In this document: positions 3,340 to 53,926 of the stretch, piece after piece
How the letters are laid out: the number at the start of each line of letters is the position of its first letter
How positions within the stretch are numbered: the first letter of the stretch is position 1
Source: a virus
Strand: one strand, 5' to 3'
Virus record (IMG/VR): IMGVR_UViG_3300007345_000033
Length of the DNA: 64,000 nucleotides
Program-made: the position numbers and the translations under genes
The notes under the pieces: generated by a model
Told to the model about the DNA's origin: nothing
The model's database searches: none
The model's input: only the letters and a program-made list of their open reading frames with translations

Positions 3340-3853
3340 TATTTGGGTAATCTCTGATACCCACTTTAACCATGCCAATATTCTCAACTTTAATGATAGT
3401 ATTGGTAACCCAGTTCGATCTTTTGATAGTGTTCAAGAGATGAATGAAATCATGATTAGAAACTGGAATCAGGTTGTAAGACCTGGTGACGAAGTTTATC
3501 ATCTTGGTGATGTTCTCTTTGGCACTAACAAGAGAGATTGGATGGCTAAGAATTTCCCTAGACTAATGGGATCAAAACGGCTGATTGTTGGTAATCATGA
3601 TAATGTCAAGGAATTGACTTTGAGTGGTCACTTTCAAAAGGTCATGATGTGGCGTCAGTTTAAAGATTTAGGTCTTTTGCTGACGCATGTCCCAGTACAT
3701 CCTTCTACTCTTAAAGAAGGACGATTTGGTGATTTAACACCCATTAATGTACATGGTCATATCCACCAAAATAAAAGTCCTGAAGGACCGTACAAATGTG
3801 TTTGCGTCGAGCAGACTAATTACACACCAGTAAACATTGAGGAACTGAAATAA
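3326..3853 (+). CDS. metallophosphoesterase (short form)
   Basis: ISDTHFNH (D-x-H), LGDVLFG (GDxxD-like), VGNHDN (GNHD) and HGHIH motifs in canonical order. Confidence 0.55.
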   Translation: MMARDIWVISDTHFNHANILNFNDSIGNPVRSFDSVQEMNEIMIRNWNQVVRPGDEVYHLGDVLFGTNKRDWMAKNFPRLMGSKRLIVGNHDNVKELTLSGHFQKVMMWRQFKDLGLLLTHVPVHPSTLKEGRFGDLTPINVHGHIHQNKSPEGPYKCVCVEQTNYTPVNIEELK

Positions 3854-13181: not shown

Positions 13182-13790
13182 ATGAAACTATTTATTTGTC
13201 AATTCTGCGGCAGGGAAACAACTAATCCTGGTGCCAATAAAAAACATGAGATTGGTTGTAGGAATAACCCAAATTCAAAAATTTGTGGCGGTAATAAAAA
13301 AGGGTATGTTCCTTGGAATACTGGAAAAGTGGGTGTACAAACTGCTTGGAATAAGGGTAAACCTGGAACATTTAGAGGTAAGAAACACACAGCAGAAACC
13401 AAAAGAAAGATGTCTGAGAGCAAAAAAGCATTATACGCTACTGGATGGGAGTGTATCGCTGGAAGATGTCCAAAATATGATTATGAGTCCCCTATTGCCG
13501 GAAAGATAAAGGTAGATGGTAGTTGGGAATTGGCATTTTGTGAATTTGCTGATAAAATGCAATTAAACTGGGAAAGAAATAAAAAACGTTTTCCGTACAC
13601 TAAACCAGATGGAACTAAATCTACGTATCAACCAGATTTCTATGTAAAAGAATTAAAGTCTTATATTGAAGTCAAAGGATATGAAACAGATTTAGATAAG
13701 GCTAAATGGGAACATTTTCCCGAAAATCTGATAGTGCTTCGAAAGAAAGAAATCGGTGGGTTGGATGAGTGGTTTGCTAAACCGTCATAG
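13182..13790 (+). CDS. homing-endonuclease-like protein: NUMOD3 motifs + gp4-like PD-(D/E)XK nuclease domain
   Basis: N-terminal Cys pairs (CQFCG...CRNNP) and NUMOD3-like GKKHTAETKRKMSESKK. C-terminus YQPDFYV...YIEVKG (PD...ExK) aligns with ORF 54493..54939. RBS agggag before the Met at 13182. Confidence 0.55.
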   Translation: MKLFICQFCGRETTNPGANKKHEIGCRNNPNSKICGGNKKGYVPWNTGKVGVQTAWNKGKPGTFRGKKHTAETKRKMSESKKALYATGWECIAGRCPKYDYESPIAGKIKVDGSWELAFCEFADKMQLNWERNKKRFPYTKPDGTKSTYQPDFYVKELKSYIEVKGYETDLDKAKWEHFPENLIVLRKKEIGGLDEWFAKPS

Positions 13791-13806
13791 GATTAAAAGT
13801 TCTATC

Positions 13807-13834
13807 GAGGGTTCGAATCCCTCACTCACCGCCA
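13807..13834 (+). other. tRNA 3'-half fragment (T-arm + acceptor 3' strand + CCA)
   Basis: gagggttcgaatccctc + actcacc + g + cca. The upstream partner ggatgagt forms an acceptor only with a bulge. The inferred anticodon loop would be 9 nt. Confidence 0.4.
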
Positions 13835-14692: not shown

Positions 14693-15760
14693 ATGAGTAA
14701 AAAAGAATTTGACCTGTTGGTCTTTATCGGTCGTTTTCAACCATTTCATAATGGACATCAGGCCGTTATTGATGAAGCTCTAAAGAGAGCGGACGAAGTA
14801 TTAGTTATCATTGGTTCATGTGGTGGACCAAGAACAATACGAAATCCATTTACATACGGAGAACGACATGCGATGATTCGTGCATCCAATGATGATGCTT
14901 ACGAAGATGGTCGTTTATGTATTGATGGTGTGGATGATTATCCATATAATGACAGTAAATGGCTATCAGAAATTCAATTGATTATTGATGATGATACTAA
15001 CCTTTCTAATTGTAATCGTAATCTAAATAACCTTGACAATCCTAAATGGATTAAGAAGGTCGGGTTGATCGGTCATTCAAAAGATAATACTTCATACTAT
15101 TTGAAAATGTTCCCAGGAATGGATTCGGTTGCAGTTTCTGATTACAAAGGCATCAATGCAACTAACATTCGTGAAGACTTGCTATCCTTCCCCAATGAAA
15201 AATATTACAAACGTGATATGCCAAATCCTGCACAAAAAGTGATTGAGAATATTATCAATAAAGACTATTGGGCACTTTTAAAGCAAGAATATGAAATGAT
15301 CCAAGAGTATAAGGATTCATGGAAATATGCACCTTATCCTCCTACATTCGTTACCACTGATGCGGTAGTAATTCAATCTGGACACATTCTACTTGTACGC
15401 CGAGGTCATGCACCAGGAATTGGTCAATGGGCTTTGCCTGGCGGATTTTTAAATCAAACAGAAACTCTACTTGACGGATGTATTCGAGAACTGCGAGAAG
15501 AAACTCGTTTGAAAGTTCCTGCACCAGTATTGAAAGGTTCTATCAAGGGACAACATACGTTTGATGACCCAAATCGTTCATCACGTGGACGCACTATCAC
15601 TAATGCTTTTTACTTTGAATTAACACCTATGGAAGAATTACCAAAGGTCAAGGGTTCAGATGATGCAATTGAAGCCAAATGGTTTAAATTGAGTGAACTG
15701 GATAGTAAGGTGATGTTTGAGGATCACTACGGAATTATTGACTACTTTGTTGGTCTTTAA
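14693..15760 (+). CDS. natV: bifunctional NMN adenylyltransferase / Nudix hydrolase (NadM-Nudix, NatV-like)
   Basis: N-terminal nucleotidyltransferase signature LVFIGRFQPFHNGH. C-terminal Nudix box GFLNQTETLLDGCIRELREETRL (GX5EX7REUXEEXGU). Confidence 0.8.
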   Translation: MSKKEFDLLVFIGRFQPFHNGHQAVIDEALKRADEVLVIIGSCGGPRTIRNPFTYGERHAMIRASNDDAYEDGRLCIDGVDDYPYNDSKWLSEIQLIIDDDTNLSNCNRNLNNLDNPKWIKKVGLIGHSKDNTSYYLKMFPGMDSVAVSDYKGINATNIREDLLSFPNEKYYKRDMPNPAQKVIENIINKDYWALLKQEYEMIQEYKDSWKYAPYPPTFVTTDAVVIQSGHILLVRRGHAPGIGQWALPGGFLNQTETLLDGCIRELREETRLKVPAPVLKGSIKGQHTFDDPNRSSRGRTITNAFYFELTPMEELPKVKGSDDAIEAKWFKLSELDSKVMFEDHYGIIDYFVGL

Positions 15761-15810
15761 TAAAAATCCTAACAAAGAGTTAGGTAACATAAACTTTAGA
15801 GGAGTTCTAA

Positions 15811-17127
15811 ATGAAACAATCAATTTTATTGAATACTGATAGCTATAAAGCATCAATGTTTGTACAATATCCACCAAAAACCGAGGCGGTATATTCTTAT
15901 ATTGAATCTCGTGATGGAAAATATAATGAGCTAGTATTCTTTGGCCTACAGGCTTTTATTAAAGAATACTTGTCAGATCCAATTACACAAGAAGATATTG
16001 ACGAAGCAGAAGCAATTTGGACTGCACATGGAGAACCTTTCAACCGTTCTGGTTGGGAGTATATCCTAAATGAACATGATGGATATTTGCCAGTGGAAAT
16101 CAAGGCTGTTCCCGAAGGAATGCCAGTCGCTATTCATGATGTGATGCTCACTATTGAAAACACAGACCCAAATTGCTTTTGGTTGACTACTTATCTTGAG
16201 ACCGCACTTCTTCGTGCTATCTGGTATCCAACTACAGTTGCTACCAACTCGCGAGAAATTAAGAAGCTGATCGCAAGTTATATGGATAAGACTTCTGATA
16301 GCCGTGAAGGATTGGTGTTTAAACTCCATGACTTTGGTGCAAGAGGAGTGTCGTCAAATGAAAGCGCAATGCTTGGTGGTATGTCACACTTGATTAACTT
16401 CATGGGTACAGATACCATTGTTGCCACTCTTGGTGCCAGAAAATACTATGGCGCAGATATGGCTGGATTTTCTATTCCGGCGGCTGAACACTCTACTATC
16501 ACTTCGTGGGGTAAAGAGAATGAAGTCGAAGCATATCGCAATATGGTAAAACAGTTTGGTAAACCTGGAGCGTTAGTGGCAGTGGTATCGGATAGCTATG
16601 ATATCTATAATGCCGTGGAAAATCTCTGGGGCGAAAAACTAAGGCAAGAAGTTATTGATTCAGGTGCGACAGTTGTTGTTCGCCCCGACTCTGGTATTCC
16701 TTGGAAAGTTGTCCGTGATACCGTTAAACTTTTAGATAAGAAATATGGGAGTACAAAAAACTCAAAGGGATATCGTGTGTTAAATAACGTCCGTGTAATT
16801 CAGGGTGATGGTGTTGATTATGAGGCTATTGATAAAATTCTACAGACACTATTCGTCAATAGGTATTCTGCCGATAATGTGGCATTTGGTATGGGTGCAA
16901 ACCTTTTAAGTACATCTCAAAGAGATGATCAGAAGTTTGCCATGAAGTGTTCTGCTGCAAAGGTTGATGGCGTATGGCGAGACGTATTCAAAGACCCTAT
17001 TACCGATCCTGGTAAGAAGTCTAAAAAAGGTCGATTTGATGATCCAAGACTTAAGCGTGTATTCTATAATGGAAAACTTGTTCGTGAAACCACTTTTGAT
17101 GAGGTTCGACAAAATGCCATGCTATAA
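15811..17127 (+). CDS. nadV: nicotinamide phosphoribosyltransferase (NadV/NAMPT-like)
   Basis: 438 aa. N-terminus LLNTDSYK. Conserved FGARGVSS, GTDT and AAEHST segments characteristic of NAMPT. Adjacent to the NMNAT gene, as in the vibriophage KVP40 NAD salvage pair. Confidence 0.8.
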   Translation: MKQSILLNTDSYKASMFVQYPPKTEAVYSYIESRDGKYNELVFFGLQAFIKEYLSDPITQEDIDEAEAIWTAHGEPFNRSGWEYILNEHDGYLPVEIKAVPEGMPVAIHDVMLTIENTDPNCFWLTTYLETALLRAIWYPTTVATNSREIKKLIASYMDKTSDSREGLVFKLHDFGARGVSSNESAMLGGMSHLINFMGTDTIVATLGARKYYGADMAGFSIPAAEHSTITSWGKENEVEAYRNMVKQFGKPGALVAVVSDSYDIYNAVENLWGEKLRQEVIDSGATVVVRPDSGIPWKVVRDTVKLLDKKYGSTKNSKGYRVLNNVRVIQGDGVDYEAIDKILQTLFVNRYSADNVAFGMGANLLSTSQRDDQKFAMKCSAAKVDGVWRDVFKDPITDPGKKSKKGRFDDPRLKRVFYNGKLVRETTFDEVRQNAML

Positions 17128-20153: not shown

Positions 20154-20390
20154 ATGGAAATTAATTGGAATAAAATTGCAGAGCCTAGTGATAAGGAATT
20201 AATTTATTGGGAAATGATTGATAATTTAGCATCGGATATTAAAAAAACTTCAATTATGGCCTTTGGAGAAATTGAAAATGATGAGGAAATTTCTAAAGAA
20301 AGTTATGATCGTTTGATTTCAGTTGTTAACCAACTTAACAGTATTTCGTCAAATTTAATTAAAGCAAATTTTATTGGTGTTAGCCAATAA
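20154..20390 (+). CDS. hypothetical protein
   Basis: Preceded by promoter 20097..20125 and the conserved leader ending aatagga. Confidence 0.45.
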   Translation: MEINWNKIAEPSDKELIYWEMIDNLASDIKKTSIMAFGEIENDEEISKESYDRLISVVNQLNSISSNLIKANFIGVSQ

Positions 20391-20397
20391 AAACTTC

Positions 20398-20427
20398 TTT
20401 ACTTTTTATGCTAGATATACTATAATA
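20398..20427 (+). promoter_or_regulatory. sigma70-like promoter driving the tRNA / structured-RNA block
   Basis: tttact 20398..20403. 18-bp spacer. tataat 20422..20427. No ORF follows; tRNAs and structured RNA lie downstream. Confidence 0.5.
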
Positions 20428-20550
20428 TATCTATAAGTTGATAAAAAAGGAAATTAGCAAGGTAAGCTCGCAAGTTAGATACTCGGTTAGAGTGAAGGAT
20501 GCGGGAGATTGTTAGGGATGAGTGGACGGGATCGCCTAGCAAATTATTAT

Positions 20551-20624
20551 TGCCCTATAGCTTAATGGGAAAGCATTCGACTGATAATCGAAAGACCGAG
20601 GATCGTTACCTCGTAGGGCAACCA
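20551..20624 (+). tRNA. tRNA-Ile (anticodon GAT)
   Basis: Acceptor tgcccta/tagggca. D gctt/aagc. AC stem ttcga/tcgaa with loop ctGATaa. T cgagg/cctcg. CCA encoded. Confidence 0.7.
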
Positions 20625-20629
20625 AGTAT

Positions 20630-20705
20630 GGACCCTTAGCTCAGTTGGAAGAGCATCTGACTTTTAATCGGAAGGCCGTGAGTTCGAATCTCACAGGGTC
20701 TACCA
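20630..20705 (+). tRNA. tRNA-Lys (anticodon TTT)
   Basis: Acceptor ggaccct/agggtct. D gctcagttggaagagc. Loop ctTTTaa. T gtgagttcgaatctcac. CCA encoded. Confidence 0.75.
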
Positions 20706-20710
20706 ATTTT

Positions 20711-20784
20711 TGATTCGTGGTGAAGTGGTATCATAGCTGACTTTGACTCAGTTGTCGGAGGTTCGAATCCTCCCGAATCATCCA
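20711..20784 (+). tRNA. tRNA-Gln (anticodon TTG)
   Basis: Acceptor tgattcg/cgaatca. AC stem gctga/tcagt with loop ctTTGac. T ggaggttcgaatcctcc. CCA encoded. Confidence 0.65.
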
Positions 20785-20922
20785 AAAATAATGGGCGGAA
20801 GGATTGAGATGGGAAAGGCTACGTATAAACATTGCGTATGTGAATTGTGTGGTAAAAAAGTTGTTTTGGATAAACATAATTTAGATTGGGAAAATATAAA
20901 GAAGTTAATTTGATTGTTTTGT

Positions 20923-21013
20923 AGTCCCTTAGTTTAATGGTAAAACACCCGTCTTATAAGCGGCACCGTCTCCAGATTAGAGAGCGATATGGGTTCGAAT
21001 CCCATAGGGACTA
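20923..21013 (+). tRNA. type II tRNA-like gene, anticodon loop ctTATaa (assignment unclear; TAT or shifted TTA), no encoded CCA
   Basis: Acceptor agtccct/agggact. D gttt/aaac. 4-bp AC stem. About 21-nt variable arm. T atgggttcgaatcccat. Confidence 0.4.
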
Positions 21014-21117
21014 CAAAACAATTAAAAGCGACAGATCGTAACCCAGGTCGCCTACCAAAATACGAAAGAGAAAAATGCATATAACTTGAAATGATTTGTC
21101 AATATAAATAAAGTTGA

Positions 21118-21193
21118 CGCAGCGTGGAGAAGTGGTTATCTCGCCATCCTCATAAGTTGGAGATCGTAGGTTCAAATCCTACCGCTGCCCCCA
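21118..21193 (+). tRNA. tRNA (anticodon CAT; Met/fMet/Ile2)
   Basis: D gaga/tctc. Loop ctCATaa. T gtaggttcaaatcctac. Acceptor cgcagcg/cgctgcc. CCA encoded. Confidence 0.6.
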
Positions 21194-21201
21194 AAAAATA
21201 T

Positions 21202-21277
21202 GTTGGTGTAGTGTTAATGGCTAGCACGTCAGTCTCCAAAACTGAAAGTTCGGGTTCGAGTCCTGGCACCTTCGCCA
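21202..21277 (+). tRNA. tRNA-Trp (anticodon CCA)
   Basis: AC stem tcagt/actga perfect with loop ctCCAaa. T-arm ttcgggttcgagtcctgg. Acceptor has 2 mismatches. CCA encoded. Confidence 0.55.
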
Positions 21278-21307
21278 TTTTTTTAATAAGAATTTTGTTC
21301 GTTTTGC

Positions 21308-21379
21308 TGGATAGTAGCACAATGGCAGTGCAGCTGACTGTTAATCAGCAGGTTGTTGGTTCGAGTCCAACCTATCCAG
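21308..21379 (+). tRNA. tRNA-Asn (anticodon GTT), CCA not encoded
   Basis: Acceptor tggatag/ctatcca. D gcac/gtgc. AC stem gctga/tcagc with loop ctGTTaa. T gttggttcgagtccaac. Confidence 0.65.
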
Positions 21380-21394
21380 CAAAACGAATAATTC

Positions 21395-21470
21395 GCTGTT
21401 ATAGCTCAATTGGAAGAGCAGCTGTTTTGTAATCAGCAGGTTGTGGGTTCGATTCCTACTAACAGCACCA
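21395..21470 (+). tRNA. tRNA-Thr (anticodon TGT)
   Basis: Acceptor gctgtta/taacagc. D gctcaattggaagagc. Loop ttTGTaa. T gtgggttcgattcctac. CCA encoded. Confidence 0.65.
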
Positions 21471-21475
21471 TAAAT

Positions 21476-22480
21476 AAATTGCGAGGTATAGCTCGCTTGT
21501 CCCATGATCTTCGGGTCATGGGAATAGGGTAAGACTGGTAACAGTCCCAAAGGCAGGTTTCCTATAAACTGCCGCCAGCAATGGTCCTTCTATACAAGCT
21601 CAGAGTGGAGTTGACTCGGTTGATAGCCGAAAGCAACTCGTTGTCAGTAGAATGGCAATAGTGGAGCAAGGTAGAATTGTAGTCCGAAAGGATGTGACCG
21701 GAGCCAATCGGTGAGGTCTAATTGACTGTGGTGGTGAAGCTACGATTAACCAAACTACCGAATCTTACACTCAATGAGTAGTTACTGAGTTTGACCATTA
21801 GCGTGGAAAGGCAAAGTAGCATTACAAGAGTTGAAAGGGTAGGACCTGGAAACTTGAAGTATCGTTTAGTATCCCGCAAGGAGAAAGACAGGTGATGTGT
21901 TGTATTTTGTATCCCAAAAGGATATGAAGCAACTGGAGTGGCACATCACAGTAGGTTCGCAAATTAGCTCATTTGGTAGAGCAAAAGACGCATAATCTTT
22001 AGGTAGTGGGTTCAAATCCTGCATTTGTTTAAAAAGCAAAGTCTACTCCGGTACGTCATTAAAGACGCTTAATACCATACTCGTAAGGGAATATGGTGCA
22101 TTGAAGCTCGCAAGGCGGATGTGTTTGTTTGGAAAGAAAACGTAAACTCTTAGCGGAGTTGAACTGCTCGCAAGGCAGGCGGAAGATTGAAAGACGAGTA
22201 GTGACGTATGACACAGGAAATGCCACCTGTATAAAAAGGCAGCGTTGGAAGATACTGTATTAGTGTTCCACACAATGCAGTGGATACGTAGAGAACGTGG
22301 CTCGCAAGGCTTACGATAATGCTACAAAAGACTTCCATCTTATGCTATAATCTCAGGCTAGGCAAAACTATCTTAAAAGATACACTGTGGGCTAACTAGT
22401 AACGCCGTTGCAGTAAAATGCGAGACGATAACGATTGTAAGTGCAAATCTTACCAGTGTATCTCTTAAGATAGTTTTAAA
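21476..22480 (+). ncRNA. candidate large structured ncRNA (about 1 kb, ORF-free, GNRA/UUCG tetraloop hairpins, repeated gctcgcaaggc motif)
   Basis: No credible ORF in about 1 kb of an otherwise gene-dense phage. Hairpin cccatgatc-UUCG-ggtcatggg at 21500. Multiple c-GCAA-g and GAAA loops. Motif gctcgcaaggc at about 22105, 22160 and 22300. Flanked by tRNAs, with an embedded tRNA-like element. Confidence 0.5.
21958..22028 (+). tRNA. tRNA-like element (anticodon CAT, G33, no CCA) embedded in the structured RNA
   Basis: D gctcatttggtagagc. AC stem aaaga/tcttt with loop cgCATaa. T gtgggttcaaatcctgc. Weak acceptor (6 bp). Possibly a pseudo-tRNA or a structural domain. Confidence 0.35.
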
Positions 22481-22554
22481 GCGGAATGGTGTAGTAGTAA
22501 CATTTCTGTCTCATAAGCAGAAGATCGTAGGTGCAAATCCTACTTCCGCATCCA
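22480..22554 (+). tRNA. tRNA (anticodon CAT)
   Basis: Acceptor agcggaa/ttccgca. AC stem tctgt/gcaga with loop ctCATaa. T gtaggtgcaaatcctac. CCA encoded. Confidence 0.5.
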
Positions 22555-22634
22555 AAAAATAAAACGATAAAAAGGGGTTTACTTTCAGCCCCTTTTCATA
22601 TATAATCAACTTATAAATTGAAATAAGGTTTGTT

Positions 22635-26327: not shown

Positions 26328-26358
26328 AACCTCTTTACTATCATACCGGCTTAGCTTA
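26328..26358 (+). promoter_or_regulatory. sigma70-like early promoter (canonical copy)
   Basis: aaaaaacctCTTTACTatcataccggcttagctTATAATacgtgtataaattgataagga. Near-identical copies near 26985, 27995 and 29352. Confidence 0.65.
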
Positions 26359-26364
26359 TAATAC

Positions 26365-26781
26365 GTGTATAAATTGATAAGGAGTTATATCATGGGTTTA
26401 GATATGCATTTGGTTACTGTTAGTGAAGGGGAGTTTCCTCGCTACGAGAATTCTGGTTGTAACTATATTGAAGAAGCGTATTGGCGTAAGGCCAATGCTA
26501 TCCATAAATATTTTGTGGACCTGGCAGGAGTCGATAATTGTGAACCATTCTTGGTCACCAAAGAGATTCTGGAAAATCTACAAGATATTTGTCAGAAAAT
26601 TTTGGCCGACCGACAGCTAGCAGAAGATCTTCTTCCCTCACAAAGTGGTTTCTTTTTTGGTAATACGTCATACGACGATTACTACTACGACCAATTGGAA
26701 TATACTGTTGAACGAATTGAAAACCTTTTTGGGAACAAAGTTTTTGAGGGCAATGATGTTTACTATTGGGCGAGCTGGTGA
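26365..26781 (+). CDS. hypothetical protein
   Basis: Preceded by a canonical promoter (tttact-N17-tataat) and the leader gtataaattgataagga. Confidence 0.45.
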   Translation: MYKLIRSYIMGLDMHLVTVSEGEFPRYENSGCNYIEEAYWRKANAIHKYFVDLAGVDNCEPFLVTKEILENLQDICQKILADRQLAEDLLPSQSGFFFGNTSYDDYYYDQLEYTVERIENLFGNKVFEGNDVYYWASW

Positions 26782-26978
26782 TGGTTGAAATAACAGAAGA
26801 AGAATATAAATTATTTAATCTTTATCGTAAAATATTTAAACATTTAAGGCCAGAAGTATCGGGAACATATTTTATTTGCGGAGAAAGCGGCGAAAAAGAT
26901 GTGAATGGCCTCCCAGAGAAAATAACTGTATGCCCTGCCATGGGAGTTGGGTTCACATCAGTTTATAAAAAAACATAA
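26766..26978 (+). CDS. hypothetical protein
   Basis: Coupled ORF. Confidence 0.35.
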   Translation: MGELVMVEITEEEYKLFNLYRKIFKHLRPEVSGTYFICGESGEKDVNGLPEKITVCPAMGVGFTSVYKKT

Positions 26979-27045
26979 AAAACCTCTTTACTATCATGCC
27001 AGCTTAGCTTATAATACGTGTATAAATTGATTAAAGGTTTATAAG

Positions 27046-27831
27046 ATGATTTATGATCTGACCAAAGTTCCCTCTAAAATCCGGGAGCAAATTGAAACAA
27101 CTCCGAAATACCGAGAGTTGTTCTCCAAGAAACCTGAACAACTTTTGGCGATTGATGGTAATGCGAAAACCATCAAAGGTCAGAAAAAAGGTTTCAAGAC
27201 TGCTATCATGTATCTGACTCCCGGGCGTGGTTCCGGTGAGAATATGTGCCCGACAGCAGCTTTGGCTCAGTGTGAGGCTCCGTGTTTGAACACCGCTGGC
27301 ATGGGCGCCATGTCCAACGTTCAAATTGGTCGCCTCCGTAAAACCCTATTCTTCCAACAATATCGTGACGAATTTCTGGTACTCCTTCGCAAGGAAATTC
27401 GTCGTTGTGTCAAGTCTATCACGAAGAGCGGATATGTTCCTTTGATCCGCTTGAACGGCACGAGCGATATTCGTTGGGAGAATTTTGGTATTCCTCAGGA
27501 GTTTCCTGAAGTTCAGTTCTACGATTATACCAAACTCACTAATCGTAAGAATATCCCATCAAACTACGATTTGACTTTTTCCTATTCCGGTGTTCCCCTT
27601 TATCAACACGTGAACGAACAAGCTGTCAGCGCTGGCTATCGTATTGCTGTCGTGTTTCGTGAGCGTGCTATTGTGCAGCGTTTGTTAGAGAACGGGGAAA
27701 CTTTCATGGGACTTCCTGTGGTGGACGGTGATGATACGGATATCCGTCACCTTGATCCTCATGGCTCTATCGTGGCTTTGTACGCCAAGGGTAAAGCTCG
27801 TAAAGACACTTCTGGTTTTGTGGTTGATTGA
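27046..27831 (+). CDS. conserved hypothetical protein (Cys-rich)
   Basis: 261 aa. Preceded by a promoter copy at about 26985..27040. CPTAALAQCEAPC motif. Confidence 0.45.
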   Translation: MIYDLTKVPSKIREQIETTPKYRELFSKKPEQLLAIDGNAKTIKGQKKGFKTAIMYLTPGRGSGENMCPTAALAQCEAPCLNTAGMGAMSNVQIGRLRKTLFFQQYRDEFLVLLRKEIRRCVKSITKSGYVPLIRLNGTSDIRWENFGIPQEFPEVQFYDYTKLTNRKNIPSNYDLTFSYSGVPLYQHVNEQAVSAGYRIAVVFRERAIVQRLLENGETFMGLPVVDGDDTDIRHLDPHGSIVALYAKGKARKDTSGFVVD

Positions 27832-27832
27832 T

Positions 27833-27988
27833 ATGGATTATACGTTGTTTAAGGAACGAGTCTGGTTCCTTCCTGGCCGTGGGAAATACCTTTACTATGT
27901 GAGACAAAACGGTCGGTTTGTGGGCGGACCGTTTCGGTCAAAAAAAGCCGCCATCGAAGACCTGCGAGTCAGGAAAAATAATTTATAA
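27833..27988 (+). CDS. hypothetical small basic protein
   Basis: Internal Met of tracked ORF 27728..27988 located just after the upstream stop. Confidence 0.3.
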   Translation: MDYTLFKERVWFLPGRGKYLYYVRQNGRFVGGPFRSKKAAIEDLRVRKNNL

Positions 27989-28065
27989 AAAACCATAAAA
28001 AACCTCTTTACTATCATACGATCTTAGCCTATAATACGTGTATAAATTGATAAAGGTTTTATATC

Positions 28066-28281
28066 ATGTCTAAAAAAATCGATCCTGAAGTTTTGGCCTC
28101 CTTTCACGCTTGGGTCAATGACGGCCAAGAAGAGCGTTACGACGAAAACGGTTTTCTGAAACCCGAGTATGAAGACGAATACGAAAACGAAGAAGACGAG
28201 CCTTTCCAGTTTATGGGTTGGTTCGAGAATCAAAATGTTTCTGACGAAGTTTTGGCCCTGGAGGATTCTCTGTATGACTGA
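28066..28281 (+). CDS. acidic small protein
   Basis: Promoter copy at about 27990..28050. Highly acidic sequence. Confidence 0.4.
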   Translation: MSKKIDPEVLASFHAWVNDGQEERYDENGFLKPEYEDEYENEEDEPFQFMGWFENQNVSDEVLALEDSLYD

Positions 28282-28525
28282 ACGAGATAAAGCTATTTCC
28301 CGCCTTCTTAATCATATCTATATGTTAAACGAATATCGCATAGATATTGACGGAAATATGGATTATAAGGAATGGATAAAAACAAACCGTGATCCTTCGG
28401 CGGTAATGAACAAGTACCGTATCGAAGAATGCGAGGATGAAATCGAGGATTTACTCCTATCAATTGAGCTACGTATTCGTAAATGTATGGAATGGTTTAA
28501 GGAAGAAAATGATGAATGTGAATGA
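28274..28525 (+). CDS. hypothetical protein
   Basis: Internal Met of ORF 28169..28525 overlapping the upstream stop (ATGACTGA). Confidence 0.35.
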   Translation: MTERDKAISRLLNHIYMLNEYRIDIDGNMDYKEWIKTNRDPSAVMNKYRIEECEDEIEDLLLSIELRIRKCMEWFKEENDECE

Positions 28526-28823
28526 AATTTTTGAATCCCTACAAGATCTAGAATATAGTATTCTGGAGCAAACTGAAAAAGTTTCGGCCAGAGACCTGGG
28601 CCTTGATCCTCGTTGTGGAATTTTTCATGTGGATAAAGATGGCGAGTTCGTGATGGTGGATAAACATGATCGTCGTAGAGTGGACTACTACGGTGGCCTG
28701 GAATATGTCGATGAAGAAAACATCTTAACCCTGAACGAATACGTTTTGTATATGGCAGATCACGGGCGGATCGCCAGAATGATTAAATTTTATCATGAGA
28801 ATAAAGAATCCGATAATGTATAA
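28509..28823 (+). CDS. hypothetical protein
   Basis: Internal Met of ORF 28437..28823, coupled. Confidence 0.35.
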   Translation: MMNVNEIFESLQDLEYSILEQTEKVSARDLGLDPRCGIFHVDKDGEFVMVDKHDRRRVDYYGGLEYVDEENILTLNEYVLYMADHGRIARMIKFYHENKESDNV

Positions 28824-29417
28824 GCTTCTGAAAGATCATAGCATGGAGGAAATCTACGCTATGATGGCCTCCCATAAAAACGGCAAGACCATTGAGATGC
28901 TGGTGAACGGCAAATGGCAAACAGCAGTTATGCCTCTTTGGTGGCCGAATTGTACCTATAGAGTCAAACATTAAAACCGATAGTTGACTCATAAGTATTC
29001 TTGATTAGAGGAGAATAAATTTATTATGTATATAATGGAAAACAGGAGATTATGTATATGTGTTTGAAAATGAAAAAAACTTCAGAGACGCCATGGCCAT
29101 GACCACACAAAATTATTCTGGCTTTTCTTTGACTCTTTACTCCGTATTTGTCCTGAGAAAGAACGAAAGGGTAAAACATGGCAGTACACTATCATAAAAG
29201 ACATTACTGGTTTCTTCGATAAACAAATCAAAATTTATGGAAACCCCAGAAAAAATGTTATCTTAAAAATGGTTGAGGTGTATTATAAAGCTTGACCACT
29301 ATAGAATAGTATATAATATTGAACTAAAATGAAACGGCCCCAAGCCAATAAAAAGCTCTTTACTTTCATAAAGGCCTAGGCTATAATACGTGTATAAATT
29401 GATAAAGGGAATATACT

Positions 29418-32814: not shown

Positions 32815-32915
32815 AAAACTTCTCCATAAGATTAAACCCCATTATACCCTAAGCTGCCATGGAAGTAAAGAGGTTTTTTATGGCCTGGCGCGCTGGGAGC
32901 CGAAGCTCCCATTTC

Positions 32916-33137
32916 TCATTTATTTTTAACCCATGGAATTTTCTCCAAATCTTTTCCAATCGCCTGCTCAATACGATCAATTGCATCATACTCATTATCA
33001 GCTACGCATAAAATGCCATAACCATCACCAATGGCGATAAACGGCCCGAGACGACCAACCAATCGTTCACAAACCAACGTACCATTCTCATAGGCACGAC
33101 GTATATTAATATCATTCAAACACATCAGCAAACCCAT
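32916..33137 (-). CDS. cassette small protein
   Basis: Minus-strand ORF flanked by a cassette promoter (33150..33200) and a terminator. Confidence 0.4.
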   Translation of the reverse strand: MGLLMCLNDINIRRAYENGTLVCERLVGRLGPFIAIGDGYGILCVADNEYDAIDRIEQAIGKDLEKIPWVKNK

Positions 33138-33520
33138 AGATTTAACTCCTTATTACCTATAGGTATGTTATACCCTAAGCTGCCATGGAAGTAAAGAGGT
33201 TTTATATGGCCTGGCGCGCTGGAGGAAATCCCTCCAGCTTTACGTTTATTTTTCTCGGTAATTGATATCAATCAATAGCATTACGGCGATCCCGATAAAC
33301 AAAACGGTGAAATAGACAAACACTCCAGCATAAGTCATTAATAGTTCTCCAGTACAAACAGATCATAAGCTACAAGGCCAATGATAACGAACACGAAAAA
33401 AGTAGTCATAGCGAACCCCTAAAAGCTATAGGTACATTATACCCTAAGCTGCCATGGAAGTAAAGAGGTTTTCTATGGCCCAGCGCGCGATGGAGAAAAG
33501 GGGGCCGAAGCCCCCTTAAA

Positions 33521-33769
33521 TCAGGCTACCTCAATTTCGGGTTCGGAGGCTTTGGCCTTAGTATCGGCAAAGCTTTCACCGGTTGCCCGGCCATTACGGA
33601 CAGCCGAACGATAAGCACGGGTAGCTTCCTTAATACCGAATCCATCCTTTTCCAAGTTTTCGGAATGGATAGCTTCCACGATCAGGGGAAGGACATCTTC
33701 CATAGCCTTGTCGGTGTTAGCGTTCATTACTCCAGCGACAACCGAACGGCGAGTAGGGCGATTCCACAT
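33521..33769 (-). CDS. cassette small protein, MWNRPTRRSVVA family (copy 1)
   Basis: 82 aa. Near-identical to 33901..34149, 36967..37215 and the N-terminus of 36054..36563. Own promoter, RBS (ggagttaaagctATG) and gggggccgaagccccc terminator. Confidence 0.6.
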   Translation of the reverse strand: MWNRPTRRSVVAGVMNANTDKAMEDVLPLIVEAIHSENLEKDGFGIKEATRAYRSAVRNGRATGESFADTKAKASEPEIEVA

Positions 33770-33900
33770 AGCTTTAACTCCTTATTAACTATACCCCATT
33801 GTACCCTAAGCTGCCATGGAAGTAAAGAGGTTTTCTTAGGTTTTTTAAGAATCCTCCGGCGCGCTCTGGCAAAAGAAAAGGGGGCCGAAGCCCCCTTAAA

Positions 33901-34149
33901 TCAGGCTACCTCAATTTCGGGTTCGGCAGCCTTAGCTTTAGAATCAGCATAGCTTTCACCAGGAGCACGACCGTTGCGAACAGCCGAACGATAGGCACGG
34001 GTAGCTTCCTTAATGCCAAAGCCATCTTTCTCTAAGTTTTCGGAATGGATAGCTTCCACGATCAAAGGCAAAACGGCTTCCATAGGCTGGCCTTCGTTAG
34101 CAGACATAACAGAGGCAACAACCGAACGGCGAGTAGGACGATTCCACAT
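33901..34149 (-). CDS. cassette small protein, MWNRPTRRSVVA family (copy 2)
   Basis: Paralog with the same flanking cassette elements. Confidence 0.6.
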   Translation of the reverse strand: MWNRPTRRSVVASVMSANEGQPMEAVLPLIVEAIHSENLEKDGFGIKEATRAYRSAVRNGRAPGESYADSKAKAAEPEIEVA

Positions 34150-34549
34150 AGCTTTAACTCCTTATTAACTATAGGTATGTTATACCCTAAGCTGCCATGG
34201 AAGTAAAGAGGTTTTCTTAAGTTTTCTTAAAAAATCCGCGAGCGCGCTGGGGAGCCGAAGCTCCCCGTTGGATCATGCTATGCTAGTATGGATTCTACGA
34301 AGGGATTCTTCGTCGATACCTTTCAATTCTTGTAGTGTACGTTTACGGATAGTCATCCGGTCCGAATCCTTGTGCATCGGATTGCTCATAATTTTGTCAG
34401 TGATGTGATTTGTAATCTCACGGCGGATGGCGGCAATGGTTTTCATAGCAGAACTCCTTAAAAGCTATAGGTACATTATACCCTATGCTGCTATGGAAGT
34501 AAAGAGGTTTTCTATGGCCAGCGCGCTGGGAGCCGAAGCTCCCCTTTCC

Positions 34550-34747
34550 TTATTCTTTCAACATACGTATTAGCATTTTTACTACGGCTGGATTATCCAT
34601 TTTAAAGATTTTGGTATTTTGGCCTGTATTCTGTGGTGGCACATATTCAAACCACGCACCGCTCTCATCCCGGCGAAAGCGAAGGCACTCCCCGGCTGGA
34701 CGGTCGATATCACCTAACACTAGATTGCCGTAATTATTTTTATTCAT
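34550..34747 (-). CDS. cassette small protein
   Basis: ORF with a cassette promoter and terminator. Confidence 0.4.
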   Translation of the reverse strand: MNKNNYGNLVLGDIDRPAGECLRFRRDESGAWFEYVPPQNTGQNTKIFKMDNPAVVKMLIRMLKE

Positions 34748-34864
34748 CAGCAGGTCTCCTTAAAAGCTATAGGTACATTATACCTTAAACGGGCATGGAA
34801 GTAAAGAGGTTTTTTATGGCCAAGCGCGCGATCGCGAAAAAAGGGAGCCGAAGCTCCCCTTTCC

Positions 34865-35038
34865 TTACTCATCAATATTAGCTAGAGCAGCTGGGCGCCA
34901 ATCATAATCAAACGCAGCGAGTTGACGGGCAAGCTCACACAAAAACGTCCAGTCGTCACCGTAGACCCGGCACTCTTTAATATAACGGTCATAAACGGCA
35001 GAAGCGGCTTCAAAGGCAACACGAGTGGTAATCATCAT
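34865..35038 (-). CDS. cassette small protein, MIKTR/MMITTR family (copy 1, 57 aa)
   Basis: Below the ORF-track cutoff. Manually translated MMITTRVAFEAASAVYDRYIKECRVYGDDWTF... Paralog of 35503..35682 and 35791..35937. Confidence 0.45.
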   Translation of the reverse strand: MMITTRVAFEAASAVYDRYIKECRVYGDDWTFLCELARQLAAFDYDWRPAALANIDE

Positions 35039-35156
35039 TTAAGGCTCCTTATTAACTATAGGTCATTATACCCTAAGCTGCCGTGGAAGTAAAGAGGTTT
35101 TCTTAGAATTCTTCGGCGCGCTTCGGGTAAGAAAAAAGGGGCCGAAGCCCCTTTCC

Positions 35157-43994: not shown

Positions 43995-44385
43995 AAAAAA
44001 CAGTTGATAACTTATAAAAATTCCTTTACTTCTAAACTAAAATTAAATATACTATATAAATAATAAGCGGATTTGATTATCAGATTCTAAAAGTTATTCA
44101 GGACACGGGGGCAGTTCCCGTCGTCTCCACCAGAAGAGTATTGGTTATCAGGGTTGGAATAAACCTGGTGTAATAGATTTTCCAAACGTCCAGTACTCTT
44201 TTGATGGGGACGATTCAGGTTCGACTGGTAATAAGTAAGTTCTCTGTAGAATACGCTATTTAAAAATAAATGCTAACGATAACTTCAAAGCATTTGATTA
44301 CGCCTTAGCTGCGTAATCATTGGGCGGCCACTGCCTCGAAACAGAAGTGTGGCATTATTTCCTAAAATTTTATGAAAGGTTTAAC

Positions 44386-44754
44386 ATGAAAACATTTTTG
44401 ATTGCAACTACTGCATTGGTAGTTTCAACAACAGCAGCCTTGGCTGGTGGAATGCAACCAGGCGTTTGGTCTGGTGAGGCTTTTGCAGAATATGGGGTAA
44501 ATGCCCAAGATGTAACACTTGGAGGCGGTGTTGCTTATGATATCAACTCAGTTAGCTTGTGGACTGAAACTGAACTTCAAGTAGCTCAAGAAGTTGATTT
44601 GACTTTGAGTGATGTTACCTTTGGTGCAGATTATGCAATTCTACCTCAAGTAGATGCGTATATGGCATTTGAGTTTGCTGGTAATCCAGATGCAGCTAAT
44701 GGTCTTGGGGTTGAATATAATGAAACTTCAATTGGCCTTCGCTACGAGTGGTAA
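44386..44754 (+). CDS. secreted small beta-barrel outer-membrane-like protein
   Basis: Signal peptide MKTFLIATTALVVSTTAALA. Alternating hydrophobic pattern. C-terminal ...GLRYEW (terminal aromatic, typical of OM beta-barrels). Terminator ggggagcttcggctcccc at 44762..44779. Confidence 0.45.
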   Translation: MKTFLIATTALVVSTTAALAGGMQPGVWSGEAFAEYGVNAQDVTLGGGVAYDINSVSLWTETELQVAQEVDLTLSDVTFGADYAILPQVDAYMAFEFAGNPDAANGLGVEYNETSIGLRYEW

Positions 44755-53296: not shown

Positions 53297-53926
53297 TTAA
53301 TAAGTCACTAAAGGATCTTTCAATCCACCGCCTTCTATGGTAAACTGAGAATAAGTTATTGAGGTTGCAAGGCGTATTAAATCGCCTTTATCGTTCCATG
53401 CTAATGGCATTTCCAACAAAGAAGAAGGGAATGCTTCGTATAGATTTATCTTTTTAACAATATTTCCGACCTGGTCATATAAAAATATTTGCATGGTACT
53501 TGTGTATTCACTTTTATATTTTGAAACATATTTTGGTATTCTAATTCCGGATTCCGAACCATTAAATTCAAATATAGTTCTCATCCAATCATACCAAAAA
53601 TGTAATAGATCGGCCTTTTTATCTAATAAGATAGAAAAAGTTGTATCGTGATAATATGAATTGAATGGGATCTTTTGGGTTGGACCAAATCCGAATCTTT
53701 GTACTTCAGCGGAAAGTAAAGAAACCCCAGGTATTTTTACTTGATCAATTCTATATCGTAATATGTCATTGGTTACATTAAAGAGGGACTTTTCAGTTCC
53801 ATCATAACTTTCTAGTTTTTTATTTTGTAATATTGGCGGAATTGATAATGCAACCTCAAATGCATGAGGTTTTAAATAGCCATATCCGCTTATATTAGAT
53901 TTAAAATTGTTTAGGTTAAATCCCAT
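53297..53926 (-). CDS. hypothetical protein (gp3-like by position only)
   Basis: 209 aa. Occupies the position of gp3 in the T4 3-2-4 / 53-5 divergent arrangement. No motif verified. Confidence 0.3.
   Translation of the reverse strand: MGFNLNNFKSNISGYGYLKPHAFEVALSIPPILQNKKLESYDGTEKSLFNVTNDILRYRIDQVKIPGVSLLSAEVQRFGFGPTQKIPFNSYYHDTTFSILLDKKADLLHFWYDWMRTIFEFNGSESGIRIPKYVSKYKSEYTSTMQIFLYDQVGNIVKKINLYEAFPSSLLEMPLAWNDKGDLIRLATSITYSQFTIEGGGLKDPLVTY

Follow-up and report, generated by a model that had tools for sequence, protein, structure and literature searches.

The stretch from 21480 to 22359 of the window (the whole 64,000-nucleotide piece of viral DNA analysed here, IMG/VR record IMGVR_UViG_3300007345_000033) is, with high confidence, a GOLLD RNA, which is prolonged to 22479 by a lineage-specific 120-nt 3′ stem and lies in the tRNA array of an uncultured myovirus. 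Positions given below are those of the window, and features are on the plus strand (+) unless marked (-). GOLLD is among the largest and most elaborate non-coding RNAs of bacteria and phages, and a rise in expression during phage lytic growth is a trait of the family. As published, GOLLD RNAs are phage-borne, occur in tRNA islands, exceed 800 nt, and have two domains: (i) a less conserved, variable 5′ region of ~420 nt; and (ii) a universally conserved 3′ region, which correspond to residues 1-420 and 421-833 of the solved family member, env-38 (PMC12286853).

When the whole window was searched with cmscan against all 4227 Rfam families, the GOLLD model (RF02032) matched 21892..22359 (+) with a score of 224.5 bits (E 2.8e-62), above its curated gathering score of 150 bits. 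The match covers model positions 1-416 of 416 and is not truncated. RF02032 models the conserved 3′ region only, and the match marks the GOLLD 3′ domain, the universally conserved half of the RNA. With the 5′ domain described below, the RNA has a total length of ~880 nt, beyond the 800 nt of the family description, and no point against its membership of the GOLLD family was found. The E-value of 1e-62, together with the covariation described below, places the region beyond chance. A sequence-only reading of this DNA had raised the possibility of a large, ornate RNA like the phage-borne GOLLD and ROOL, or else of a novel class, and had suggested a cmscan search as the check. The first proposal is borne out by the full-length match above the gathering score; the second falls, as this copy is part of an existing class (RF02032). 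In a permissive cmscan (E ≤ 1) of 20380..22620, no match was found to ROOL, HEARO, group I/II introns, RNase P RNA, or tmRNA. The other Rfam families reported in that interval at E ≤ 1, besides GOLLD and the tRNAs, were rejected as sub-threshold noise; for instance, a Plastid-ycf2 match lies on the antisense strand of tRNAs, and a YrlA match reaches 26 bits where its gathering score is 69.

GOLLD is flanked on the same strand by eight tRNA genes upstream and one downstream, as called by ARAGORN. The upstream genes (Ile-GAT, Lys, Gln, Ile-TAT, Met, Trp, Asn, and Thr; 20551..21470, also matched by the Rfam tRNA model) end with tRNA-Thr (21395..21470), 10 nt ahead of the 5′ hairpin of GOLLD, and a tRNA-Met with a CAT anticodon (22480..22554; ARAGORN and Rfam tRNA) is the last gene of the tRNA-GOLLD unit. 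The DNA in between (21471..22479) has a G+C content of 43%, vs. 37% for the entire window. The sequence-only reading described about 1 kb without a credible ORF between tRNA-Thr and the CAT tRNA, and indeed no ORF longer than 76 aa is present there on either strand. The ORFs that overlap 21471..22479 are mechanical frames of 25-76 aa, on both strands, and could be taken to encode one or more small proteins, so that the conservation of the region would be at the protein level. The likelihood of this is practically negligible: no ORF spans a conserved block, substitutions in the helices are compensatory, indels among the relatives are not multiples of three, and the match to a structured-RNA model is full-length with an E-value of 1e-62. 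A conserved coding frame, the finding that the sequence-only reading had named as fatal to an RNA, was looked for and none was found.

Upstream of the Rfam match lies the GOLLD 5′ domain (21480..21891), the less conserved half of the RNA, which was recognized through blastn, RNAalifold, and its linkage to the 3′ domain. It opens at ~21480 with the hairpin GCGAG-gtatag-CTCGC. By blastn, more than 25 IMG/VR viral contigs align with 21471..21891 over ~350 nt at 68-75% identity. The RNAalifold consensus of 17 aligned 5′-domain sequences contains 87 pairs in 20 helices, and 60 of the pairs show compensatory double changes. In this consensus 96.3% of cells are paired, compared with 33-42% in controls whose partners are shifted by 1-3 columns. 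The covariation score reaches 0.556, vs. 0.06-0.10 in these controls, and none of 500 column shuffles attains any of the observed measures. The hairpins, whose conservation and covariation in relatives the sequence-only reading had put forward as a check, are thus conserved and strongly covarying. A pattern scan for the 3′ domain returned 55 viral contigs, representing about 50 real GOLLD loci, and a motif scan for the 5′ domain returned 19 loci. A GOLLD 3′ domain follows ~310 nt downstream in each of the 17 loci of the latter scan with enough DNA. Since these loci all carry the 3′ domain, the 5′ and 3′ halves are one RNA of ~880 nt. It has to be considered that GOLLD might consist of 21892..22359 only, with the upstream 410 nt being unrelated spacer or decayed tRNA genes that are structured by chance; the Rfam model spans just the 3′ half, and no similarity between the 5′ half and the 5′ domain of env-38 is detectable. 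However, the 5′ half is conserved and covaries over the 17 aligned loci, it always precedes the GOLLD 3′ domain at a fixed distance, it contains no tRNA signal at E ≤ 1 by Rfam cmscan, and the family itself is described with a variable 5′ region of ~420 nt, all of which renders such a truncated GOLLD very improbable.

The UUCG-capped hairpin of the sequence-only reading is present at 21500..21523 (tcccatgatc-TTCG-ggtcatggga, read in the sequence), with a stem of 10 bp. Its site is a gap in all aligned relatives except one (L052), which has a different insert there; by this alignment, the hairpin is a lineage-specific insertion in the 5′ domain and not a conserved element. The description of the region as tetraloop-rich is only modestly true, as a strict count (GNRA or UUCG loops whose stem has 4 bp or more) gives 4 such loops in the 1 kb region against 1.1 per kb window-wide. 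A recurring motif, the 11-mer GCTCGCAAGGC, occurs exactly three times in the 64 kb window, at 22106, 22166, and 22300, where 0.36 copies would be expected by chance and 0 of 100 shuffles reach three. These three copies had been reported correctly, along with a fourth in the leader that proves to be just the 9-mer GCTCGCAAG, at 20466. The first and second GCUCGCAAGGC hairpins (22106..22116 and 22166..22176) are aligned to conserved hairpins of the GOLLD model, and both have a CGCAA pentaloop on a stem of G-C, C-G, and U·G pairs. The third (22300..22310) lies in an insertion with respect to the Rfam model, is extra relative to env-38, and is also found in Erythrobacter phage XM05.

Another hairpin, AACUC-UUAGCG-GAGUU (22145..22160, loop 22150..22155), can be followed through ~45 related loci, in which the stem covaries and a palindromic dinucleotide, GC (UUAGCG) or CG (UCGA), is retained in the loop. 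[quoted passage not shown] The hairpin at 22145..22160, with its palindromic GC, is probably equivalent to L21a of env-38, a mapping made via approximate numbering with an env-38 copy of 816 of the 833 nt. Within the limits of that approximate mapping, its conservation supports a conserved contact between subunits.

The RNA-only cage of GOLLD is larger than a ribosome. In the solved homologue, env-38 (PDB 9MEE), this cage is a protein-free homo-14-mer with D7 symmetry and a diameter of 380 Å (Kretsch et al., Nature 2025, PMC12286853). The 5′ domains form its caps, the 3′ domains form its rings, and the linker faces the interior (PMC12286853). From this single solved homologue we infer that the GOLLD of the present phage forms a cage as well. 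By homology, each RNA would adopt a two-domain fold without the help of protein, and the copies would join into a closed homo-oligomeric cage; the linker would bring a covalently attached tRNA-like module into the cage interior. The likeness to env-38 and RF02032 comprises the full-length 3′ match, a length greater than 800 nt, two domains with a 5′ domain of ~410 nt here, a variable linker close to where the 3′ domain starts, and a location in a phage tRNA island directly downstream of a tRNA. On the other hand, the linker here carries a 73-nt tRNA-like module, while that of env-38 has a disordered loop of ~42 nt, and the present RNA has the 120-nt, long-stemmed 3′ extension, which it has in common with only three relatives. 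Since no similarity of the 5′ domain to that of env-38 is detectable, the stoichiometry and the geometry of the caps could differ from those of env-38. A profile of the subfamily found no nhmmer match in the 5′ domain of an env-38 copy taken from a PDF (816 vs. 833 nt), and a forced MAFFT --add alignment, poor in itself and made with this copy that is ~17 nt short, kept 32 of the 87 pairs. The first ~100 nt look loosely similar by eye, a resemblance that is not relied on here. This missing similarity fits the known divergence of the GOLLD 5′ region.

The tRNA-like module (21958..22030) falls in the unaligned variable insert, or linker, of the GOLLD model, near the start of the 3′ domain. The tRNA-like element of the sequence-only reading (CAT anticodon, G33, no CCA) is real: ARAGORN calls it as tRNA-Met(CAT), and it matches the Rfam tRNA model with 47.3 bits (gathering score, 29 bits). 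Its anticodon loop is CGCATAA, with a G at position 33, and its acceptor stem has a C1·U72 mismatch and a G2·U71 pair. The D- and T-arms are canonical. The module thus passes the cloverleaf models, and of the attributes of a decoding tRNA it lacks U33, an acceptor stem with all 7 bp paired, and an anticodon that selection preserves across orthologues. Phage-encoded tRNAs are sometimes found in the GOLLD linker (PMC12286853), and a “pseudo tRNA” for which separate expression was not detected lies within a mycobacterial GOLLD (PMC6582537). Linker tRNAs in GOLLD are already known, and the tRNA-like element here is a known feature of this kind.

About 30 related GOLLD loci have a call in the same slot, for a tRNA or a tRNA-like element, and 27 distinct embedded elements from related loci were compared with 46 flanking tRNAs of the same loci. 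Anticodon loops of 6 or 8 nt occur in 7 of the 27 embedded elements and in none of the 46 flanking tRNAs, and the mean number of unpaired acceptor-stem positions is 1.6 in the former vs. 0.39 in the latter. Embedded elements also carry Ser and Leu anticodons on class-I bodies of 71-77 nt (total tRNA length was used here, as variable-region counts from ARAGORN brackets are unreliable for class II tRNAs), and their anticodon changes from locus to locus, being different in nearly every relative. Given the odd loop sizes, the unpaired acceptors, the Ser and Leu anticodons on short bodies, and the shifting anticodons, the slot is filled by a module of tRNA shape whose features are not those of a typical decoding tRNA, and the module at 21958..22030 is probably a pseudo-tRNA.

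Alternatively, 21958..22030 could be a functional tRNA (Met, initiator, or Ile2 with a modified CAT) that is excised by RNase P and RNase Z, in which case GOLLD would be mainly a tRNA precursor or scaffold and would end up in two pieces. The passed Rfam threshold, the ARAGORN call, the canonical D- and T-arms, and the published mention of phage tRNAs in the linker (PMC12286853) speak for this. In contrast, G33 replaces the near-universal U33, the acceptor stem has a mismatch as well as a G·U pair, and the tRNA score is low for the array in which the module lies. In addition, the relatives fill the slot with degenerate elements, in their loops and acceptors as in their short-bodied Ser and Leu anticodons and ever-changing triplets, and the mycobacterial counterpart has no detected separate expression (PMC6582537). 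A working tRNA is thus distinctly unlikely, and the pseudo-tRNA is the preferred reading.

Similar modules are present in the nearest GOLLD loci of isolate genomes, those of the marine alphaproteobacterial phages MD18 (MT270409), DSS3_MAL1 (MN602268), and XM05 (PV416404), in all of which the RNA is unannotated. GOLLD is detected at the homologous place with 169.6 bits in Phaeobacter phage MD18 and with 120.4 bits (E 1e-32) in Erythrobacter phage XM05. All three resemble the present locus in their location in a tRNA array and in ~70% identity at the start of the 3′ domain, and the tRNA-like module of MD18 and XM05 occupies the same position and shares the unusual C32-G33. The anticodon triplets of the module differ, however, being CAT here, TCT in MD18, and CTT in XM05, and the 5′ domain has no blastn similarity to any of the three phages. 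In MD18 the linker tRNA is the only labelled part of the locus (as tRNA-Arg). A hypothetical CDS of MD18, QJA42972.1 (locus L001, 3493..3678 (-)), is annotated on the strand opposite to GOLLD and tmRNA transcription; it sits between GOLLD, which ends at 3485, and the tmRNA, which starts at 3696, abuts both, and may be an annotation artefact.

The mycobacterial GOLLD, likened here by its published description, is also embedded centrally in a large tRNA cluster and has a predicted pseudo-tRNA inside the gene, but it is chromosomal and belongs to a prophage-derived, horizontally acquired cluster of an actinobacterium (PMC6582537). ROOL, which forms a homo-8-mer nanocage, is likewise phage-borne, large, ornate, and near tRNA islands, but is unrelated in sequence and fold. 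Within the subfamily, seven GOLLD loci (L010, L011, L014, L035, L037, L047, and L050) are located on contigs of 280-380 kb; these contigs indicate that GOLLD occurs in jumbo phages also.

The 3′ extension (22360..22479) is 120 nt long and consists of a 24-bp basal stem around a degenerate tRNA-like interior. The arms of this inverted repeat, 22364..22387 and 22454..22477, are 96% complementary, and the tail folds with an MFE of -39.2 kcal/mol (z -3.8). The interior is a cloverleaf-like relic whose T-arm shares 86% identity with the T-arm of the next tRNA, although no tRNA model match was found in it at E ≤ 1 by Rfam cmscan. Among the related loci, only three (L012, L018, and L026) share the conserved basal stem, around interiors that vary. 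A wide distribution of the tail among GOLLD loci was considered and rejected, as a specific pattern scan yielded only these three known loci; a regular expression written for the 3′ end of GOLLD failed to find most loci, and the tails of relatives were compared for part of them only. Because it is absent from most relatives, the 120-nt tail may lie outside the functional RNA, and the 24-bp stem is possibly a processing or protective stem. Two genuine tRNAs of the array are bracketed in a like manner: tRNA-Ile(TAT) (20909..21026, (+)) and tRNA-Asn (21295..21391, (+)) have complementary flanks of 20-21 nt (95%), which extend the acceptor stem by ~13 bp. In view of these, the long stems of the tail and of both tRNAs may be a local processing device and may mark double-strand-specific processing sites in the precursor.

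A promoter-like site, TTTACT-N17-TATAAT (20398..20426; 10 of 12 positions as in the consensus), precedes the array. This motif has 18 exact copies in the window, where 0.05 would be expected; examples are at 49, 111, 1035, 5676, 20097, 20398, 22578, 26334..29387, 32841..35093 (-), 40929, and 41234, and many copies share the extended consensus TTTACTWTCAT...CTTAGSNTATAAT. TTTACT-N17-TATAAT is evidently the main promoter class of the phage. From 20427 to 22577 there is no copy, and the next one (22578..22606) stands just past the last tRNA; eight tRNAs, GOLLD, and one more tRNA lie between the two. GOLLD is probably co-transcribed with the nine tRNAs from 20398..20426, to judge from this arrangement. 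The sigma70-like promoter of the sequence-only reading is present as a promoter-like site and is probably shared with the tRNAs, as stated there, but it is not the RNA's own, as it probably serves the whole tRNA-GOLLD unit.

Under the proposed mechanism, this promoter would yield one precursor that contains GOLLD and the nine tRNAs, and GOLLD would probably be freed by the tRNA-processing enzymes of its neighbours, namely RNase P at 22480 and RNase Z or other nucleases after 21470. An RNase III-type enzyme may cut the 24-bp basal stem as well. A weak, terminator-like GGGG...CCCC hairpin followed by TTTT (22574..22596, read from the sequence) overlaps the -35 of the next promoter copy; it was not called by the terminator scan, its loop being 11 nt. 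In addition, a 25-nt inverted repeat pairs the first bases of the transcript (20429..20453) with a segment just past its end (22594..22618) at 80% complementarity. It overlaps the -10 of the next promoter and could either bracket the whole precursor or be merely a promoter-proximal similarity. The leader (20428..20550) was considered as a structured element and discarded, with a fold z of only -1.8, no Rfam match, and no similarity to related loci; its only feature in common with the GOLLD region is the 9-mer GCTCGCAAG.

The window as a whole encodes baseplate wedge and hub proteins, a DNA ligase, and NAD-salvage enzymes, and contains 25 tRNA calls. No close cultured relative was found, the baseplate hub protein being less than 45% identical to anything in the phage collection. 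A permuted, two-piece tmRNA of the alphaproteobacterial type (44026..44407; Rfam), with the tag peptide ANDNFKAFDYALAA, is also present. The GOLLD loci of alphaproteobacterial phages are alike in having a permuted alpha-type tmRNA in the same genome, but that of MD18 is directly downstream of GOLLD (L001 3696..4111), whereas the one here is 22 kb away. The permuted alpha-type tmRNA, as in MD18, points to an alphaproteobacterial host. The NAD-salvage pair (14693..17127, (+)), which adjoins the first tRNA cluster, consists of a nicotinamide-nucleotide adenylyltransferase/NUDIX fusion-like protein and a nicotinamide phosphoribosyltransferase. Inside the array, between tRNA-Gln and tRNA-Ile, there is a 34-aa ORF, MGKATYKHCVCELCGKKVVLDKHNLDWENIKKLI (20809..20913, (+)), that has a CxCxxC motif and a Shine-Dalgarno-like GGAAGGA 5 nt upstream. 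The neighbouring tRNA-Ile with the rare TAT anticodon (20923..21014, (+)) is called by both ARAGORN and Rfam (61.8 bits) and, at 92 nt, has a long extra segment for its class-I identity. Two other tRNA calls are doubtful: one at 13755..13831 (+) is weak in Rfam (36.3 bits) and missed by ARAGORN, and a 95-nt tRNA-Lys at 53538..53632 (-) is called by ARAGORN alone.

The locus leaves the definition of the GOLLD family unchanged. It adds a clean and complete example of GOLLD in a tRNA- and tmRNA-rich myovirus, and a well-populated subfamily of about 60 viral contigs with a distinct 5′ domain that now has covariation support. It further provides numbers in support of the linker “tRNA” in this subfamily being a degenerate module of tRNA shape. 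With these additions there is a useful basis for choosing constructs in structural work and for tests of tRNA-related functions. As a speculative and on present evidence unlikely extension, the linker module of this marine or alphaproteobacterial-phage subfamily of GOLLD may be under selection as a non-decoding element instead of being a passenger gene, with the D/T elbow kept while the acceptor end and the anticodon loop drift. It may be caged at ~14 copies per particle, where it might lure tRNA-binding factors as a decoy or offer them a docking handle, with the 24-bp 3′ stem as a dedicated processing or capping element. The factors concerned might include host anticodon nucleases, RNase P, the CCA-adding enzyme, or ribosomes. 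If this decoy or docking reading were true, it would provide the first concrete functional hypothesis for GOLLD that is tied to tRNA biology.
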